In this document: positions 22,986-58,717 of the stretch, in pieces
Layout: every line of letters starts with the position of its first letter
Position numbering within the stretch: position 1 is the stretch's first letter
Assembly (NCBI GenBank): GCA_964515375.1
Contig: CAZERF010000006.1
Location: forward strand, 16,133 to 80,132
Direction of reading: 5' to 3'
Length of the DNA stretch: 64,000 nt
Source of the DNA: an uncultured Candidatus Saccharibacteria bacterium
GTDB taxonomy: Bacteria; Patescibacteriota; Minisyncoccia; Phycocordibacterales; UBA6899
Made by a program: the position numbers and the translations under genes
Notes under the pieces: model-generated
The model's database searches: none
What the model saw: the letters and a program-made list of their open reading frames with translations, nothing else
What the model was told of the DNA's origin: nothing

Positions 22986-23148
22986 ATATTGCACGGAGCA
23001 TACCACTCCGATACAATAAATGATACGGATCATCTCCCTATTTTTGATGGCCAACGACTGGCCGAGGTCAAAGTGCCACGGAGTGGCGCAGGAGCATGAT
23101 CCTCTGTATCAATCTTATTCAATTTTTATTCATTCATCATTCACTACT

Positions 23149-43020: not shown

Positions 43021-43091
43021 CTGCGGGACTAGGATTCGAACCTAGATGACAACATCCAGAGTGTTGCATCCTACCATTAGATGATCCCGCA
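43021..43091 (-). tRNA. tRNA-Gln (anticodon CUG)
   Basis: Cloverleaf folded by hand: acceptor UGCGGGA/UCCCGCA, anticodon arm CAACA-CUCUGGA-UGUUG, T-arm CUAGG-UUCGAAU-CCUAG. Confidence 0.7.
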
Positions 43092-46347: not shown

Positions 46348-47277
46348 TTAGATCTTTAAATAACGACGGACCGCCAGATAACTCGAGATGGCGCCGAGCG
46401 CGACACCGGTCCCGAGCATGACCAAGAATATCTGGTTAAGATTGGCGATGTAGTAGTAGAAGAGATCGAGTCCGTCATAAAAATTCTCGGTTGAGCTCTT
46501 GAGCCAGAGCGTGGCCGGATAAAAAAGCGCGGTAGCGACAATCGCGGAGACCATGCCGTACATGACCCCTTCAACAATGAAAGGTCCGCGCACAAAGGTG
46601 TTGTTCGCGCCGACTAGTCGCATGACGGCGATCTCTTCGCGAGAGATGTAGATTGCGAGGCGGATCGTGTTGAATGTGATCACGATCGCAATACCGATCA
46701 AAAGCAAGAGAATAGCGACAGAAAGTTTGTTGATCCCGGAGGTGATCGCGGTCAACTTGTCGATGACAATCTTATTCTTGGCGTAGTTGACGCTGTAAAC
46801 GATATCGGTGCCCGGCTCGGCGGCATTCTGCTCCTTCGTGATGTGTGCCGCGATCGCATCGTATTGAGCAGTGTCCTTCGCTTTGACATTCAAGATCGCT
46901 CCGAGGGGATTCTCGGCGAGCTCTTCGAGTGCCTGGGTCATGAGGTAGTCGTTGGAGTGACGCTCCTTGAAATTCTCGATCGCCTGATCGCGCGAAATGT
47001 ATTCCACGGACGCAACCTCGGGAAGCGATTCGAGCTCGCGTTTCATGACAAAGATATCTTCTTCGGCCGCGTCAGAGTTGAGGTAAATGTTCACATCAAC
47101 CTTGTCTTTGATGGTGTTGAGCGCGTCCTCAAGAAAGACGGAGGTCAGCATCGTGGATCCGACGACGAACAGAGCGACGGTCATAACAAAGATCGCGGAA
47201 AGCGAAACGAGCGCGTTGCGCCAAAAGTTGACGAACCCCGCCTTCACGATCCTCTTCGTGTTGGTGAAAACTGACAT
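46348..47277 (-). CDS. ftsX: Cell-division ABC transporter permease FtsX
   Basis: FtsX topology and motifs. Start chosen at MSVFTN. Not adjacent to ftsE. Confidence 0.8.
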   Translation of the reverse strand: MSVFTNTKRIVKAGFVNFWRNALVSLSAIFVMTVALFVVGSTMLTSVFLEDALNTIKDKVDVNIYLNSDAAEEDIFVMKRELESLPEVASVEYISRDQAIENFKERHSNDYLMTQALEELAENPLGAILNVKAKDTAQYDAIAAHITKEQNAAEPGTDIVYSVNYAKNKIVIDKLTAITSGINKLSVAILLLLIGIAIVITFNTIRLAIYISREEIAVMRLVGANNTFVRGPFIVEGVMYGMVSAIVATALFYPATLWLKSSTENFYDGLDLFYYYIANLNQIFLVMLGTGVALGAISSYLAVRRYLKI

Positions 47278-47325
47278 TGCACCTATTTTCGCATGAATGC
47301 ACGATGCTCGCAACGTGGAAATATT

Positions 47326-48216
47326 CTATCCCTTCATTGCGCCGTTTTTAATGAATGTTCCCTCGTCGAGTTCACGGAACGCCTGCGCAAGTTCTCCCTG
47401 CGTATTCATGACAATGGGCCCTCCCCATGCGATCGGCTCGCGCAGTGGCGGAGCGAAGAGGAGAATAAAGCGCGCGCCGGACTCCCCCGCGCGTACAAGT
47501 ACCGCGTCGCCGTCACCAAAGAGAACCGCGTGTTTCTCTTTGACCGAATCCTCGTGTGCACCGATATGTCCTTCGCCCGAAAAGAGATATGCGAAGGCGG
47601 TCAGCCCCGACGCGACAGGAGTCTGAAAGGTCGAACCCGAAACAAGATCAACATCGAGATATGTCGCGGGAACATATGCCCCGGTGAATGCACCACTGAC
47701 CCCTTCGTACTCCCCTGCAATGACCTTGACGCGCACACCCGCCCTCGTGACCGTCGGAATATCCTCGTGACGAATGTCACCATAGGCGGGAGTTGTCATC
47801 TTGTCTTTTGCGGGCAAATTGAGCCAGATCTGTGCGCCGAGCATACGCGCCGACGCGACGGGCATTTCTTGATGAATGATCCCTGATCCGGCGGTCATCC
47901 ACTGACAATCGCCGTTCTTGATGCTTCCCTTGTTTCCCAAACTATCGCCATGCTCGATATCACCCTCGATGAGGTACGTGATCGTCTCGATCCCACGGTG
48001 CGGATGCCACGGAAATCCGAGCACATAATCATCGGGGTTGACGGAATCGAACGCATCGAGCATGAGAAAGGGATCGAGGTCGCGGATGTCGGCATGCCCG
48101 ATGACACGGGTCAAATGCACCCCCGCGCCGTCGACGGCGGGCGTTCCCCGCAAGATCTTTTTGATCGGACGAAAAGTAGTCATAAGGCAAAGATGAAGAG
48201 GATAATGGATGTTCAT
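47326..48216 (-). CDS. Pirin-family (cupin) protein
   Basis: GFPWHPHRGIETITYLIEG…H is the cupin metal site. Confidence 0.8.
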   Translation of the reverse strand: MNIHYPLHLCLMTTFRPIKKILRGTPAVDGAGVHLTRVIGHADIRDLDPFLMLDAFDSVNPDDYVLGFPWHPHRGIETITYLIEGDIEHGDSLGNKGSIKNGDCQWMTAGSGIIHQEMPVASARMLGAQIWLNLPAKDKMTTPAYGDIRHEDIPTVTRAGVRVKVIAGEYEGVSGAFTGAYVPATYLDVDLVSGSTFQTPVASGLTAFAYLFSGEGHIGAHEDSVKEKHAVLFGDGDAVLVRAGESGARFILLFAPPLREPIAWGGPIVMNTQGELAQAFRELDEGTFIKNGAMKG

Positions 48217-48272
48217 TATATCGCAATCCTGAGCGCTTGCCTCGCCAATGTGATGCGGTATAGTAAGGTCAT

Positions 48273-48896
48273 ATGAAGATCAACTATTCCGGCGAATCAT
48301 CGCGAGCAGAGTACGAAGAGACCGAGGCGAAGCGTGACAGCGCCCTTGCAGAGGTCAAAACACTTCGCGAAGAGCGAGACGGCATCGAGGAAGAGCACCG
48401 TGAACTACGCGAAGAATTCGCAAGCGAAGAACCGGGCACCCCTTACCCGCTTGGAGAAGAGGAAGCTGAAGCATTCTCCCGCGTCGACGAACAGCTCACT
48501 CCGGCAGAAAACGCACTCCGTGAATCGGAAGAACGACTTAAGCGCCTCTACAACAAGGCATACGACGAAGCAAAGGCCGACAATATGAAGTGGGACCAAG
48601 CCGCGATCGCCGAGGCGGATCGGATCACGATCGAAAAAGAATTACTCCCCAAGATCAAGGAAGAATGCGCAACCATTCACACGCAATGGGAAGAAGTCGA
48701 GCATCGCGGACATTGGCTTGTAGAGCGCGCGGACGCGATCGAAAAAGAGATCGAGGAGATCCTCAAAAAGAACTTCCGAATGGAAGAAACAAAACGCATT
48801 GTCGAATTGATCAAAGAGTTCTGGGAAGTTCGAGAGGAGATCGCCAAGATACACCAACGTGCGCTCGGGTGGAATATTCGCGAAAAGAAGGACTGA
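48273..48896 (+). CDS. Highly charged coiled-coil hypothetical protein
   Basis: Promoter TTGCCT-16-TATAGT ends 9 nt before the ATG, so it is probably leaderless. Stem-loop at 48919-48946. Confidence 0.5.
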   Translation: MKINYSGESSRAEYEETEAKRDSALAEVKTLREERDGIEEEHRELREEFASEEPGTPYPLGEEEAEAFSRVDEQLTPAENALRESEERLKRLYNKAYDEAKADNMKWDQAAIAEADRITIEKELLPKIKEECATIHTQWEEVEHRGHWLVERADAIEKEIEEILKKNFRMEETKRIVELIKEFWEVREEIAKIHQRALGWNIREKKD

Positions 48897-49130
48897 ACCC
48901 ATCCTCTATGCATCCATGCCACAAAGCCCCGTATGGGGCTTTGTGGTTCATGGAGTACGCACGCATACCGAACACCCGCGTGAGCTTGACTTATGTGTAA
49001 TTTTGTGATAGTATGAAAACACCGCTGTCGTAGTGGCAGAGGAAAGCCCTTTTCAACATCCATCTCAGCCGAGCCGTATTGTGGCAAATCCACAAGCGGA
49101 CAACCTCGGCGAGGAAATAGGAGAAACATC

Positions 49131-49721
49131 ATGTCGCAAACTCTTCTTTCCGTCTTCGTGTCGATCAAAGACAAAGAATGCCATCCGAGGATGGGCACTA
49201 CGAATCTCTACTGGAAGGAATTTCCGGTATACAAAATGGAGGAAGGGTGGCGTGTTCACTTGGCAACGGAGTGGGAGAGTGTTGAATTCATCCAACTCCA
49301 CTCCGACATCGTCGAACGTTTGGCACACATCAATGGTAGCGCAACCCTTTGCCCCGCAAGCTACAGAAGTGAGGGTATCTACGAACTGCGCACCGCGCGA
49401 GTGGTGGTATTCAAGAATAATTCGCTGTGGCAAAACGTCGACATTACAGCGAAAAACATCGATGACCTGAAGGAACTCGTGGTCGCGATCCGCAACGGAA
49501 TGCCGCCCACGTACCCACTGAGTCGCCCCCAGAACGCCCCCTCCTACGAGCAGCTGCTTGCACAGACGAGGAACATGTCGGGGGCTCTCAACAGACTCAC
49601 CGAAGAGGCGGAGACAGCACTCAGGGTACTCAATGCCGCTCAGGAGATGATCCTGCAACAAGGCGAGGAGATCGCCGAACTCCGCAAGCTGGTCGCCAAG
49701 GCCAGCCAGAAAACGGCATGA
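49131..49721 (+). CDS. Hypothetical protein (196 aa) with a C-terminal coiled-coil
   Basis: Own promoter TTGACT-17-TAGTAT with a ~110-nt structured leader. SD GGAGAA. Terminator at 49745-49778. Confidence 0.5.
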   Translation: MSQTLLSVFVSIKDKECHPRMGTTNLYWKEFPVYKMEEGWRVHLATEWESVEFIQLHSDIVERLAHINGSATLCPASYRSEGIYELRTARVVVFKNNSLWQNVDITAKNIDDLKELVVAIRNGMPPTYPLSRPQNAPSYEQLLAQTRNMSGALNRLTEEAETALRVLNAAQEMILQQGEEIAELRKLVAKASQKTA

Positions 49722-49949: not shown

Positions 49950-50627
49950 TCAGAGGATATATTTGCCGTGGATGTCATCGCGGATGACTTTCCCATTCTC
50001 CATCGTCACCACTCTCTTCTTGAGTGCATCGATGATGCCCTTGTTGTGCGTGGTCAAGATGACCGTCGTCCCCATGTCGTTGATCTTCTTTAGGATCTGA
50101 ATGATGTCGTAAGTGTTCACGGGATCAAGATTGCCCGTCGGTTCATCGGCAATGAGCACGTCCGGCTGAGAAATGATCGCACGGGCGATCGCGACACGCT
50201 GCTTCTCCCCTCCCGAAAGCTCTCCCGGAAAATGAAGTGCCTTCGAAGAAAGGTCGACAAGCTCGAGGACCTGGGGCACATCAGCACGGATCTCTTCGTC
50301 GCTCCGCCCCGCCGCTTCCATTGCAAAAGCGATGTTCTCGTATGCGGTTTTGTTGGGAAGAAGGCGAAAATCCTGAAACACGGTCCCGATGCGTCGACGA
50401 TACTCGGGGACATGATGCGACTTGATCCGGTGAATATTGGTAGACTCAAAAAAGACGGCGCCGGAGGTCGGGCGATCCTCGGCAAGGAGGATGCGCAGAA
50501 GCGTGGTCTTGCCCGCTCCGGAATGTCCGACAATGGAAAGGAACTCTCCGGGCTCGATACCGAAGGTCACATCGGCGAGCGCCGCATGGTCAGAGTAGAG
50601 TTTTGTGACATTATCGAAATAGATCAT
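49950..50627 (-). CDS. ftsE: Cell-division ABC transporter ATP-binding protein FtsE
   Basis: GHSGAGKTT, LSGGEKQR, and the FtsE-length ABC domain. Confidence 0.85.
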   Translation of the reverse strand: MIYFDNVTKLYSDHAALADVTFGIEPGEFLSIVGHSGAGKTTLLRILLAEDRPTSGAVFFESTNIHRIKSHHVPEYRRRIGTVFQDFRLLPNKTAYENIAFAMEAAGRSDEEIRADVPQVLELVDLSSKALHFPGELSGGEKQRVAIARAIISQPDVLIADEPTGNLDPVNTYDIIQILKKINDMGTTVILTTHNKGIIDALKKRVVTMENGKVIRDDIHGKYIL

Positions 50628-50669
50628 AGGTAGTAGGTAGTAGGTAGTAGGTAGTAGGTAGTAGGTAGT
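50628..50669. repeat. Perfect heptanucleotide microsatellite (AGGTAGT)x6, read as ACTACCT x6 on the ftsE-coding strand
   Basis: Counted directly. It abuts the ftsE ATG. Confidence 0.9.
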
Positions 50670-50750
50670 TTCCGCTACGAGAAAATTATATCACGGATCA
50701 ACACGATGTAAAAAAAACGGAAAAGAATATCGCGCGAACAATCAGGTGCA

Positions 50751-51629
50751 CTACAACCCAAGCGCCTTCTCCGCTTCGATGAATTCGTCGAGTTCTCCGC
50801 GCTCAAGCACCGCGTCTACCTTTGCGGTCTCGACATCGGTACGATGATCCTTGACCATCTTGTATGGATGAAGCACGTATGAGCGGATCTGACTCCCCCA
50901 CTCCACCTTGGTGGTCTTGGAAACATACAGCTTCTCCTTTTCTTCATCGGAGAGTGATTCAGTCGCATGGAAAACCTTCGCGGCGAGAAGCTCGAGCGCG
51001 CGTTCGCGATTCTGGAGTTGTGAGCGCTCGGAAGAAACGTGAACCGCAATGCCGGTCGGCTCATGGATTGCGCGCACGGCGGTCTCGCGCTTGTTCACAT
51101 TCTGCCCTCCCGCTCCGCCGGACTTCGCAAACTCGAGGCGCACTTCCGCTTCGGGGAGCGTGGCGATCTCGCCCTTCTTGAACTTGGGAATGACCTCCAC
51201 CATCGAAAAGGATGTCTGACGTTTCGCATTGGCATTAAAGGGAGAGATGCGCACCAGACGATGGACGCCGCTCTCACCCTTCAATTCTCCAAAAGACGAC
51301 TTACCGACCACCTCAAACGTCAAACTTCGATATCCTCCGTGATCGTTCTCGTTCTCGTTCAAAACCTCGTAGCCCCATCCGCGGCGCTCGCAAAATTTGA
51401 AATACATGCGCGCGAGCATCGCCGAAAAATCTTCCGCGTCATCGCCTCCCGCTCCCGAGAAGATGGTCACAACGGCGTTGGCCTTGTCGTACTTTCCTTC
51501 ACCCTCTGCGACCGTCTTCAATTCCTGCAATTCTTTGATCATCGCCTGTGCCTTGTCCTTGTCCGCCCAGAAATCAGGCGACATCATGGCCTCTTCTATA
51601 GTGGCGATCCGTGCTTGTGTCTCGTCCAT
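50751..51629 (-). CDS. prfB: Peptide chain release factor 2 (short form lacking most of domain 1)
   Basis: SPF tripeptide and GGQ motif ([11 protein letters not shown]). Start chosen at MDETQ. The upstream GTG-initiated extension (to 51734) translates to an implausible FFWFWSFF sequence. Confidence 0.7.
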
Positions 51630-51730
51630 GTCCTCGATACTACCACGCGACGAAAAGAACGACCAGAACCAAAAGAAAGACCGCGACGTAGCTGGCGTCG
51701 CGGTCGTTATTTCAGAAGAAAGCACACTGT

Positions 51731-56853: not shown

Positions 56854-56929
56854 TGGAGCCAGAGCCCGGGATTGAACCGGGGACCTTCTCGTTACGAGTG
56901 AGACGCTCTACCAACTGAGCTACTCTGGC
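56854..56929 (-). tRNA. tRNA-Thr (anticodon CGU), with CCA encoded
   Basis: Hand-folded cloverleaf GCCAGAG-UA-GCUC…GAGC-G-UCUCA-CUCGUAA-CGAGA-AGGUC-CCCGG-UUCAAUC-CCGGG-CUCUGGC-U-CCA. Confidence 0.8.
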
Positions 56930-56965
56930 CTATAAACATATATTCAATTACATCTCTCATCTCCC

Positions 56966-57031
56966 GCCTCGTCCCACTCGCAACGAGTGAGCCGGCTGAG
57001 TACTTTTCTTGCCAACTCCGCTACTCTCCCC
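56966..57031 (-). pseudogene. Second degenerate tRNA-Thr-like remnant (D-loop insertion, no T-arm)
   Basis: Reverse complement GGGGAGAGUAGCGGAGUUGG…CUCACUCGUUGCGAGUGGGACGAGG aligns to the 5' two-thirds of tRNA-Thr(CGU), including the anticodon loop. Confidence 0.3.
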
Positions 57032-57149
57032 TACACACAGTACGTATTGGATTTTAAACACCCTCAACATAAGCCGAACGTGACCATTCTATACAAAATT
57101 AAGAAAAATGAAAAGGGGCCCAATGGACCCCTCGGAAACAGGATGGTAA

Positions 57150-57362
57150 TCACGGCACCTTGCGACCTTGGTCATCAATCCCATGGGAATGCTCAGGAAC
57201 TTCCACATCGTTCCCGTAATCATCGATCACATGCTCGCAGTGCGGACACCCGTCTTTTTTGCACTCCCCGCATTCGGGGTCGTCTTTTGCGTCAGAAACA
57301 CGCATCGCAAATGCCGAAAGGATCGAAGGAACCGACGGTTCCAAAAATTTGAGGTAGTTCAT
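57150..57362 (-). CDS. Small zinc-ribbon protein (70 aa; C-x2-C-x5-C-x2-C)
   Basis: SD GGAG 7 nt upstream of the ATG. PECGECKKDGCPHCEH. Confidence 0.4.
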   Translation of the reverse strand: MNYLKFLEPSVPSILSAFAMRVSDAKDDPECGECKKDGCPHCEHVIDDYGNDVEVPEHSHGIDDQGRKVP

Positions 57363-57432
57363 GAACTGCTCCTTAGAAAAGTACACCGGGAAAAATCCAT
57401 ACTGATAGTACTGCACCAACAAAAAATGTAAA

Positions 57433-57456
57433 GCAAACCGGCCTTTCGGCCGGTTT
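57433..57456 (-). terminator. Rho-independent terminator (aaccggcc-tttc-ggccggtt) serving the minus-strand ORF that ends at 57458
   Basis: Hairpin followed by a T-rich tract on the minus strand. Confidence 0.5.
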
Positions 57457-57457
57457 C

Positions 57458-57679
57458 TCAGTGCAATTGGAAACGTTTTATGTTCCGGTGCAACACCCTG
57501 CACATGTCCGGAAACGCAACGATCCACAGGAAGACAAAGAACAAAAACGCGAGAAGTCCAATTCCAGTCCAGCGAACGACGGCTCTTCCTTTACGCAGAG
57601 AACGCTCGGGCAAATAAGAGATGGTCCGCGTAATCGCGCGAAGTGAAAGTATCGATTCATTGTGAATATTGCGGCGCAT
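57458..57679 (-). CDS. Small membrane protein (73 aa)
   Basis: Strong SD GGGAGG 6 nt upstream. One transmembrane helix. Terminator immediately downstream. Confidence 0.35.
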   Translation of the reverse strand: MRRNIHNESILSLRAITRTISYLPERSLRKGRAVVRWTGIGLLAFLFFVFLWIVAFPDMCRVLHRNIKRFQLH

Positions 57680-57921
57680 AAGAAGCCTCCCCACTTGAAA
57701 AATACGATCTCTCCTGATGCTATACCTCGTGATATTTTTTGCAAATATTCGAGCAAACAAAAATGTGACCTTTAAGTTTCAAAAAAAAGAGCCAGGACAA
57801 CGCGGTTTGATTTACACAGAAGAACCTCAAAAAAATGATGGTCCCGTGAATTCTACATGAGAACCCTTGTCTTACTTGGCACGACTTCAGAGTAAAGTAC
57901 GAAAAAATATAAACCAAAAAT

Positions 57922-57997
57922 TGGAGCCGTTGCCCGGGATTGAACCGGGGACCTTCTCCTTACCATGGAGATGCTCTACCAGCTGAGCTACAACGGC
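57922..57997 (-). tRNA. tRNA-Thr (anticodon GGU), with CCA encoded
   Basis: GCCGUUG-UA-GCUC-AGCUGGUA-GAGC-A-UCUCC-AUGGUAA-GGAGA-AGGUC-CCCGG-UUCAAUC-CCGGG-CAACGGC-U-CCA. Confidence 0.8.
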
Positions 57998-58109
57998 AAT
58001 GACTGAACACGGCTATGGTACACCAGATCGACATTTCAATCAATAGAATGAACGGTGTGTGAAACACGAGGAAACACCTTTTTGAGGCAATCAACAAAAA
58101 AAAATTCCC

Positions 58110-58138
58110 TTGCATAAAATGTTAGATTCGCCTATAAT
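58110..58138 (+). promoter_or_regulatory. Strong sigma70 promoter (TTGCAT, 17-nt spacer, TATAAT) for the tRNA operon
   Basis: Seen in the sequence ~60 nt upstream of the initiator tRNA. Confidence 0.55.
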
Positions 58139-58199
58139 CCCAATATTCTTGTTTGGAAAGACTCATCGCTCAAGCAGAGGGTCCTGAAAACAAACACGA

Positions 58200-58270
58200 A
58201 GCGGGATGGAGGAGCGGTACCTCGTCAGGCTCATAACCTGAAGGCCCTGGTTCGATTCCAGGTCCCGCAA
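58200..58270 (+). tRNA. Initiator tRNA-Met (anticodon CAU, 1:72 mismatch)
   Basis: Close to the E. coli tRNA-fMet design: AGCGGGA-UG-GAGG-AGCGGUA-CCUC-G-UCAGG-CUCAUAA-CCUGA-AGGC-CCUGG-UUCGAUU-CCAGG-UCCCGCA-A. Position 1 A is unpaired with A72. Terminator at 58282-58316. Confidence 0.7.
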
Positions 58271-58371
58271 CATGAACAAAAGAACATCCCTCCAAGAGAG
58301 GGATGTTCTTTTGTTTGCGTGGAATAAAGAGGTATTGCCGTTTCTGAATTTTTTGCTATGATTCGTGCATT

Positions 58372-58445
58372 GTCGGCGTAGCTCAGTCGGTTAGAGCGTG
58401 GGACTCATAAGCCCGAGGTCGGAGGTTCGATTCCTCCCGCCGACA
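58372..58445 (+). tRNA. tRNA with a CAU anticodon (elongator Met, or Ile2 if lysidine-modified)
   Basis: GUCGGCG-UA-GCUC-AGUCGGUUA-GAGC-G-UGGGA-CUCAUAA-GCCCG-AGGUC-GGAGG-UUCGAUU-CCUCC-CGCCGAC-A. Confidence 0.7.
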
Positions 58446-58643
58446 CAAGAAAGACACACCAGTGGCTTTCGGTTCGGCGAGCGGGTGAAGATTTCTCTCG
58501 TCGTACATGTGTTTTGATTTTCTGTGAGTTGTGCTAGGATAGGAACGTTCGCGATGATAAGAAATGCTGATAAAAAAACATTCTTGTCCACCGCGGCATT
58601 CGGAGAAAATAAGAATGATGCATTTTTATTTTCATCCTCATTT

Positions 58644-58717
58644 GCGGTGGTAGCTCAACTGGTTAGAGCACCCGCCTGTCACGTGGGAGGTTGCGGGTTC
58701 GAGTCCCGTCCGCCGCG
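58644..58717 (+). tRNA. tRNA-Asp (anticodon GUC)
   Basis: GCGGUGG-UA-GCUC-AACUGGUUA-GAGC-A-CCCGC-CUGUCAC-GUGGG-AGGUU-GCGGG-UUCGAGU-CCCGU-CCGCCGC-G. Confidence 0.85.

Follow-up and report, generated by a model that had tools for sequence, protein, structure and literature searches.

The start codon of ftsE in the DNA analysed here is preceded, without any spacer, by 42 nt of perfect heptanucleotide repeat. The question raised by this locus is what such an array does in front of a housekeeping division gene: whether it switches ftsE on and off, carries periodic binding sites, serves as an ordinary leader, has been tolerated without consequence or was made by the assembler. The whole stretch of 64,000 nt, referred to below as the window, was analysed together with orthologous ftsE loci of related genomes and with contigs from independent samples. 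The positions of the features at the locus are given in Table 1.

Repeat array and coding potential

Positions 50628-50669 of the + strand were read as AGGTAGT x6 with zero mismatches, and TRF placed the array at 50627-50669 (period 7, 6.1 copies, 100% matches, score 86); the repeat is continued one base further by the A of the ftsE ATG (50627-50625). On the minus strand, (ACTACCT)x6 is followed directly by ATG ATC TAT TTC of ftsE, and the coding-strand sequence directly 3' of the array is ATGATCTATTTCGAT. The array was the sole strong tandem repeat reported by TRF in the 64 kb window, which holds one ACTACCT array and no second period-7 array of any unit. AGGTAGT occurs 11 times in the window against 1.65 expected, a count reached in none of 100 shuffles, and ACTACNNACTAC occurs 5 times against 0.00 expected; because both counts lie far above expectation, chance is excluded as the origin of an array of such length. 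The original prediction of a perfect six-copy array abutting the ftsE ATG, and of six copies being unexpected by chance, was confirmed by the sequence, by the TRF matches and by an FtsE product scoring above its cut-off. The genome, which it had described as high in GC, is not so, with 48-57% GC along the window and about 52-53% overall.

Table 1. Features in and around the 5' leader of ftsE, in window coordinates
Feature	Position	Strand	Evidence or remark
ftsE CDS, 225 aa	49950..50627	-	TIGR02673 FtsE, 269.8 bits (cut-off 264.85)
(ACTACCT)x6 perfect heptanucleotide array	50628..50669	-	42 nt of the predicted ftsE mRNA 5' leader
Non-repeat part of the 5' leader, TTTCTCGTAGCGGAA, 15 nt	50670..50684	-	Between -10 box and array
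Sigma-70-type promoter TTTACA-16 nt-TATAAT, extended -10 TG at 50693-50692	50685..50712	-	11/12 consensus matches
T8 homopolymer, length-variable, overlapping the 5' edge of the -35 hexamer	50710..50717	-	T7/T8/T9 across strains
prfB (release factor 2), 292 aa, N-terminally short	50751..51629	-	TIGR00020, 338 bits

The array is non-coding, because an in-frame TGA lies upstream of it, ATG, GTG and TTG are absent from there to the ftsE ATG, and the 3 to 7 copies found among strains include array lengths, in bases, that are not multiples of 3. The ftsE start codon was accepted as correct because the N-terminus MIYFD is common to 80 orthologues. An N-terminal extension of the form (TTYYLLP)n was considered and rejected, given the upstream in-frame TGA, the lack of an upstream start codon and the frameshift that it would suffer in some alleles. 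The longer members of the ftsE cluster (236-277 aa) belong to other species, and none of them reads through a repeat.

Two further candidates were discarded. A -10 box within the array, which would produce a leaderless transcript, would be TACCTA, and this lacks the invariant final T. A + strand gene, or a Shine-Dalgarno (SD) role for the SD-like AGGTAGT on that strand, finds downstream only an ATG that is directly followed by TAA. Rfam searches at the gathering threshold over the whole window returned only tRNAs elsewhere, and at E<=1 over 50500-50800 they returned zero matches, so the array does not belong to any structured cis-regulatory RNA known to Rfam.

Genomic context

The gene 5' of ftsE is prfB, whose product covers positions 111-350 of the TIGR00020 profile with a score below the curated cut-off; an upstream frameshift segment for RF2 was not evident. 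The gene preceding RF2 ends in a strong terminator hairpin (51679-51705) just upstream of the RF2 promoter. A terminator scan between prfB and the ftsE promoter found no clear intrinsic terminator, and for this reason read-through transcripts from prfB into ftsE are possible.

Downstream, ftsE and ftsX (46348-47313) lie about 2.6 kb apart, and the intervening DNA (47326-49721) contains a pirin-family gene and two opposite-strand ORFs without known function. In sister species, ftsX comes immediately after ftsE or is separated from it by one small ORF. The region downstream of ftsE also varies among strains (L004, L090). Elsewhere in the window, five tRNA genes on both strands are clustered in about 1.9 kb (56857-58717), and a sixth is located at 43021-43091.

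Promoter and 5' leader

The promoter TTTACA-16-TGaTATAAT was the only site found in the 2.2 kb scanned. The array is situated downstream of its predicted -10 box and outside the -35/-10 spacer. The original prediction had expected a change in copy number to alter the spacing from promoter to start; with the array 3' of the -10 box, the length of the leader changes and the -35/-10 spacing does not.

Judged from the position of the -10 box, transcription most likely starts at about 50676-50679, some 7 nt past the box. The leader would then measure about 9 nt plus 7 nt per copy, that is about 30 to 58 nt for 3-7 copies. The -10 box ends 57 nt 5' of the ATG, which is outside the range of leaderless genes (~5-12 nt). 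Within the non-repeat part of the leader, TTTCTC is kept also in the sister species L112.

The T tract at the -35 hexamer was the second variable repeat. It was T7 in L001, L003, L004, L006 and L103, T8 in the window and T9 in L008. The added T residues lie 5' to the -35 hexamer, and the 16-nt spacer is unchanged. In the few strains seen, its length tracks the number of heptamers, with T7 accompanying 3-5 copies, T8 six copies and T9 seven.

Copy number among strains

Contigs encoding exactly the FtsE of the window were looked up, which gave eight contigs from independent samples (L001-L008). Three copies of the heptamer were found in L001 and L006, which are mutually identical and come from neighbouring run accessions, four in L003, five in L004 (NCBI GCA_013565675.1) and seven in L008 (JGI 3300049811), compared with six in the window as assembled. 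Searching with the exact RF2 protein brought in a single further contig, L103, and a scan of metagenome contigs with the ftsE start pattern yielded only L004 again (as L089).

Three contigs (L005, L007 and L103) end 29-30 nt into the array. De Bruijn assemblers with k=31 break at arrays of at least 6 heptamers or at mixed alleles, and the contig ends would fit such an assembler meeting at least 6 copies or a mixture of alleles. The 3- and 4-copy alleles are not collapse artefacts because they are shorter than k=31.

Over the shared region, the strains carrying the array are 95-100% identical to the window at the nucleotide level. The closest resolved pair, the window and L008, is separated by 1 substitution in 985 nt and by two indels, each of which changes the length of a repeat, one from 6 to 7 heptamers and the other from T8 to T9. 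In repeat-free sister species, the length of the leader was constant in 10 contigs (L093-L102) and in 8 contigs (L104-L111). The array is therefore a real, length-variable microsatellite, and the variation observed is between strains at 95-99.9% identity, not within one clone. The comparison of orthologous prfB-ftsE regions proposed with the original prediction thus gave a positive result, with 3, 4, 5, 6 and 7 copies next to identical FtsE proteins, and the outcome that had been named as speaking against it, no length variation and no repeat in relatives, was not what was found.

Translation context and leader structure

The 42 nt 5' of the ftsE ATG contain no G on the RNA strand and hence no SD sequence, and the ACUACCU unit is not complementary to the canonical anti-SD; both had been anticipated. 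In this genome, the absence of an SD sequence is the norm: SD-like motifs precede 8 of the 37 ATG-initiated ORFs of the window and occur in 5 of the 80 orthologous ftsE leaders. The mean G content over -25 to -1 of the window genes was 17%, against 25% genome-wide. SD-less, G-poor leaders are accordingly normal here, as judged from the 8/37 SD-like starts and the 17% mean G, and the ftsE leader with 0% G is the extreme of this trend.

Several other genes of the window have a -10 box 4-14 nt upstream of their start, namely those starting at 23020, 23739, 33017, 35916, 37488, 43196 and 51629. At the last of these, prfB, TGGTAGTAT is followed by 8 nt and then the ATG. From such spacings, leaderless or short-leader mRNAs seem to be common in this group of Patescibacteria. 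A literature description of common leaderless or short-leader mRNAs in Patescibacteria was not found, and the papers covering both 'leaderless' and CPR do not deal with this question.

Structure prediction left the leader RNA unpaired through the array and the start codon in both the MFE and the centroid structures. With ViennaRNA, the mean probability of being unpaired over -15 to -1 was 0.47 at n=0, 0.74 at n=3 and 0.91 at n=4 copies, and it reached a plateau of about 0.95 above 4 copies. In this model, the array would thus insulate the start codon both from the 5' end, where G occurs, and from the coding region. As the predicted accessibility stays level between 4 and 7 copies, the greater part of the variation among strains may lack consequence. 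A hairpin formed by the array itself was also considered, and none was predicted for RNA or DNA (z-scores -0.67 and +0.46). A lack of local structure has been reported to permit SD-independent initiation (PMC3121790).

Orthologous loci and origin of the array

The orthologous ftsE loci, taken from GTDB species representatives, were all from Patescibacteria annotated as Paceibacteria or Parcubacteria. The nearest relatives were MAGs labelled Candidatus Lloydbacteria or 'Patescibacteria group', with 88-91% FtsE identity. In all near relatives, whose four-fold-degenerate sites are close to saturation, the extended -10 element TGnTAtAmT is conserved and can be aligned. Counting hexamers that match the consensus at no fewer than 5 of 6 positions, a -10 box ends 4-14 nt before the ftsE start in 46 of the 80 species-level relatives (L009-L088). 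On the strength of this spacing, the ancestral ftsE of this group looks to have had no leader or a very short one, and the array would have entered between the ATG and a promoter that was conserved.

Two related leaders are written in the same heptamer register. The leader of the P0009 species (L112, L113) reads CCTACCT/ACTACGC/TCTACCC/ACTACCT/ACTGACA-C-ATG, and that of the L090/L091 type reads ACTACAA/ACTATCA/ACTACAA/ACTATCA/ACTGRCT-C-ATG. At four-fold-degenerate positions of ftsE, the difference from the window is 0.55 for L112 and 0.31 for L091. The L112 array matches (ACTACCT)5 at 27 of 35 positions, an identity that is inflated by scoring against a repeat consensus, and hints that an array of the ACTAC type has persisted at ftsE for a long time. 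Single-gene NJ trees fit both one gain followed by loss in the L093 species and two separate gains.

Strain L002 has a mosaic structure: prfB is 95% identical to its counterpart in L001 and ftsE 97% identical to that of the window, while the promoter-leader segment is 97% identical to the L091 type and unalignable to the window. Because the genes are close to the window and the leader is of the L091 type, whole leader cassettes have apparently been exchanged by recombination. The corresponding region of L002 (2875-3000, versus 50628-50750 in the window) contains two copies of a 14-mer of the ACTACAAACTATCA type, and recombination breakpoints flank the leader.

Sense-strand heptamer arrays, mostly G-poor, were also seen within about 25 nt of start codons in other Paceibacteria, in front of ftsE, ftsX, pyrG and other ORFs, with period 7 more frequent than periods 5, 6 and 8. 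They are found at L011 5442-5473, L044 1053-1073 and 2088-2117, L045 1222-1248, L017 1106-1123, L030 upstream of 3713, L071 2771-2800 and L086 3680-3708. In L011, ACTACGR x4.6 ends 3 nt before the pyrG ATG, and in L044, ATACTTA x3 ends 5 nt before the ftsX ATG. Arrays of a 5-mer recurring three times numbered 19 at period 7 in the relatives, against 0 at periods 5 and 8.

A clade-wide ACTAC heptad motif was not supported by two measures. In 472 kb of relatives, ACTAC recurred with period 7 in 3 places, and with periods 6, 8, 9 and 10 in 1, 4, 2 and 0 places, respectively. The mean lag-7 autocorrelation over 465 upstream regions was not raised.

Other repeats were observed in the same comparisons. 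Between prfB and ftsE of L015, (AGGTTGT)x4 at 2747-2777 is followed about 110 nt on by the complement-like AAAACCT/ACAACCT/AACACCT (2884-2909), and the two could pair into a long hairpin. Samples of the P0005 sister species differ by exactly 42 nt in the ftsE-ftsX spacer (L107 and L110, 1078-1258, versus L104), the difference being a duplicated 42-nt unit (ATCTCAAATAT...AGAGAAT...) and not a heptamer repeat. Arrays of four or more ACTACNN units, the longest with about 19, are present on at least 120 'viral' contigs of IMG/VR (L115-L234). Among the IMG/VR matches listed, the unit seen most often was ACTACCT (23 of 125 arrays), a figure that stands without a matched control motif.

Interpretation and alternative explanations

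We consider it probable that the array is a slippage-prone heptanucleotide microsatellite which would act as an unstructured, SD-less leader of ftsE and weakly tune its translation. Transcription would start about 7 nt after the conserved extended -10 element, with the array making up almost the whole 5' leader. Slipped-strand mispairing at replication would expand and contract the array, leaving strains with different numbers of copies. Free of G and without an SD sequence, an upstream start codon or predicted structure, the leader could offer the ribosome a single-stranded landing pad for SD-independent initiation. In this lineage, the array would have turned an ancestrally leaderless or short-leadered ftsE into a leadered gene. 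A change in copy number would tune the translation of ftsE weakly and in a graded manner, mainly below about 4 copies, and would not act as an ON/OFF switch.

As a polymorphic heptanucleotide microsatellite in a 5' leader, the array belongs to a kind already known. According to the summary given in PMC4679880, Mrazek et al. (2007) defined long simple sequence repeats (LSSRs) as having units of 5-11 nt and found heptanucleotides to be the commonest long class in prokaryotes. The array resembles LSSRs in being a perfect heptamer, beyond chance length, intergenic and polymorphic, and in the dominance of heptamers in the relatives too; it differs in forming the entire leader of a housekeeping division gene. 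No literature on simple sequence repeats in the candidate phyla radiation or Patescibacteria was found.

Two further systems bear on weak tuning. With SD-independent initiation (PMC3121790, PMC5397173), the ftsE leader shares the lack of an SD sequence and a G-free stretch predicted to be single-stranded, and the orthologues with a -10 box 4-14 nt before the start resemble genes with leaderless mRNAs as described in the same papers. The difference is that here a microsatellite makes the unstructured leader and that its length varies between strains. In M. catarrhalis, uspA2 has an AGAT(n) repeat in its 5' untranslated region (Attia and Hansen 2006, as summarised in PMC4679880). The likeness consists in a repeat in the transcribed leader, which here is predicted, in strain-dependent copies and, going by that summary, in an effect that is graded and not frame-based. 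In contrast to the ftsE array, the uspA2 repeat is a tetranucleotide in 6-23 copies before a virulence gene, and its mechanism was shown experimentally.

The main rival to weak tuning is that the repeat is neutral, a possible explanation that we nevertheless hold to be on the unlikely side. The array would then be a tolerated by-product of slippage, the leader would need only to stay unstructured and the number of copies would have no effect on expression. Such neutrality is consistent with the presence of every copy number from 3 to 7 in assembled strains, with an accessibility that is predicted to be level from 4 copies up, and with sister species that manage without the array on promoters of the leaderless type. 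It also agrees with the sporadic occurrence of heptamer arrays of differing units before other genes in relatives, and with the failure to find an enrichment of ACTAC at period 7 across the clade. Against it stands the degenerate array with an ACTAC core that shares both register and position with the one in the window and belongs to a species 0.55 apart at four-fold sites; the match of this array to the repeat consensus suggests long persistence. In addition, the sense strand of the array is G-poor in every case, and the array adjoins the ATG.

A stronger reading than weak tuning, and one that we regard as improbable when all of its parts are taken together, is that the ACUAC heptad array is a selected SD-independent initiation module of Paceibacteria. 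It would then provide a periodic single-stranded platform for the ribosome, or a site for an oligomeric RNA-binding protein. It would have been kept at ftsE since before the species split, as a promoter-leader cassette exchangeable between strains, and would recur at ftsX and pyrG in relatives.

Control of ftsE translation by a trans-acting factor that reads ACUAC every 7 nt is doubtful, and we give it little weight. An RNA-binding protein of the oligomeric HutP/TRAP type, a cold-shock or S1-domain protein or the ribosome itself could be such a factor; HutP recognises UAG triplets spaced 7 nt apart. In homologous leaders the variation falls on positions 6-7 of the unit, with the ACTAC core retained (ACTACGC/TCTACCC/ACTACCT in L112, ACTACAA/ACTATCA in L090/L091), and in other species arrays of ACTACGR and ACTACGC stand in front of pyrG and ftsE (L011, L045). 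However, common descent of the leaders can account for the shared core, the array is the single one of its kind in 64 kb of genome, and in the 472 kb of relatives ACTAC at period 7 was not enriched over periods 6, 8, 9 and 10. The copy number is also unconstrained, no candidate protein was found and Rfam gave no match.

The closest parallel for periodic sites is the TAACTGA heptamer of Beggiatoaceae, which occurs as direct repeats just upstream of start codons and has been read likewise (MacGregor 2015, PMC4679880). These repeats number from 2 to at least 6 sense copies a few nt from the start, lack a recognisable RBS nearby and precede essential genes among others (PMC4679880). The ftsE array has the same arrangement, with sense direct heptamers at the start codon and no canonical RBS. 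It differs in that Beggiatoaceae reuse one heptamer at about 169 loci per genome (PMC4679880), whereas the ACTACCT array is unique in 64 kb, and in its unit, with relatives using other units at other genes.

The original prediction had placed the array among slipped-strand contingency elements, and a switch in the strict sense, in which a change of copy number flips ftsE ON or OFF through promoter geometry, is very unlikely. The array does have the form of an SSR contingency locus, as a perfect tandem repeat of a short unit next to a gene, with copy numbers that differ between close strains. A polymorphic repeat adjoins the start codon, and a second variable tract (T7-T9) touches the -35 hexamer. 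Precedents exist in H. influenzae, where TGAAAGA repeats lie upstream of hmw1A and hmw2A and (AACAACC)1-7 lies 13 bp upstream of a TonB-dependent receptor gene (PMC2651432). Alike are the 7-nt units between or near promoter and start and the similar range of copies among strains (1-7).

The H. influenzae loci are surface and uptake genes of a host-adapted pathogen, with effects on hmw expression shown, whereas ftsE encodes a cell-division ABC ATPase in an environmental ultra-small bacterium. It is a housekeeping division gene, outside the surface, restriction-modification and uptake classes of contingency loci. An ON/OFF switch is unlikely because the array lies 3' of the -10 box and not between -35 and -10, because the T tract lengthens away from the constant 16-nt spacer, because no reading frame is affected and because each number of copies between 3 and 7 inclusive is represented among the assembled strains. 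An effect of copy number through the reading frame is excluded by the non-coding nature of the array, and one through the -35/-10 spacing by its position; copy number does alter the length of the leader, with predicted accessibility at its plateau from 4 copies. Of the contingency proposal, the polymorphism between strains is supported; adaptive, reversible switching, for which ftsE would be an atypical gene, would go beyond this variation between strains.

That the assembler made the repeat or its copy number, or that the start was mis-called and a (TTYYLLP)n extension is coded, can be practically dismissed: tandem repeats longer than k are hard to assemble, three contigs break within the array and its 42 nt are in frame with ftsE without a stop codon, but the array recurs with identical flanks in four independent sources (Logan, NCBI, JGI and the window), collapse is impossible for 3- and 4-copy alleles below k=31, no start codon lies 5' of the array before the in-frame TGA, and 4-, 5- and 7-copy alleles would shift the reading frame.

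Meaning for the biology of the group

In practice, the array can be used as a strain marker, and contigs assembled with short k repeatedly break in it. A neutral repeat would be a well-documented but ordinary bacterial microsatellite. The locus gains interest from the housekeeping target, the apparent change from a leaderless to a leadered gene, the ACTAC array in a sister species and the swap of a leader cassette. In this group ftsE is typically leaderless or short-leadered, and the length of its leader appears highly plastic, with a span of about 10 to about 70 nt among near relatives.

Were the array a selected initiation module, its copy number would determine how much of a cell-division ATPase is made in these ultra-small, episymbiotic bacteria. 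If, as we consider probable, copy number weakly tunes the translation of ftsE, the locus would be a case of microsatellite dosage variation acting on a core division gene and not on a surface antigen. The setting is the Patescibacteria, in which gene regulation is essentially unstudied and of which no member can be cultured alone.
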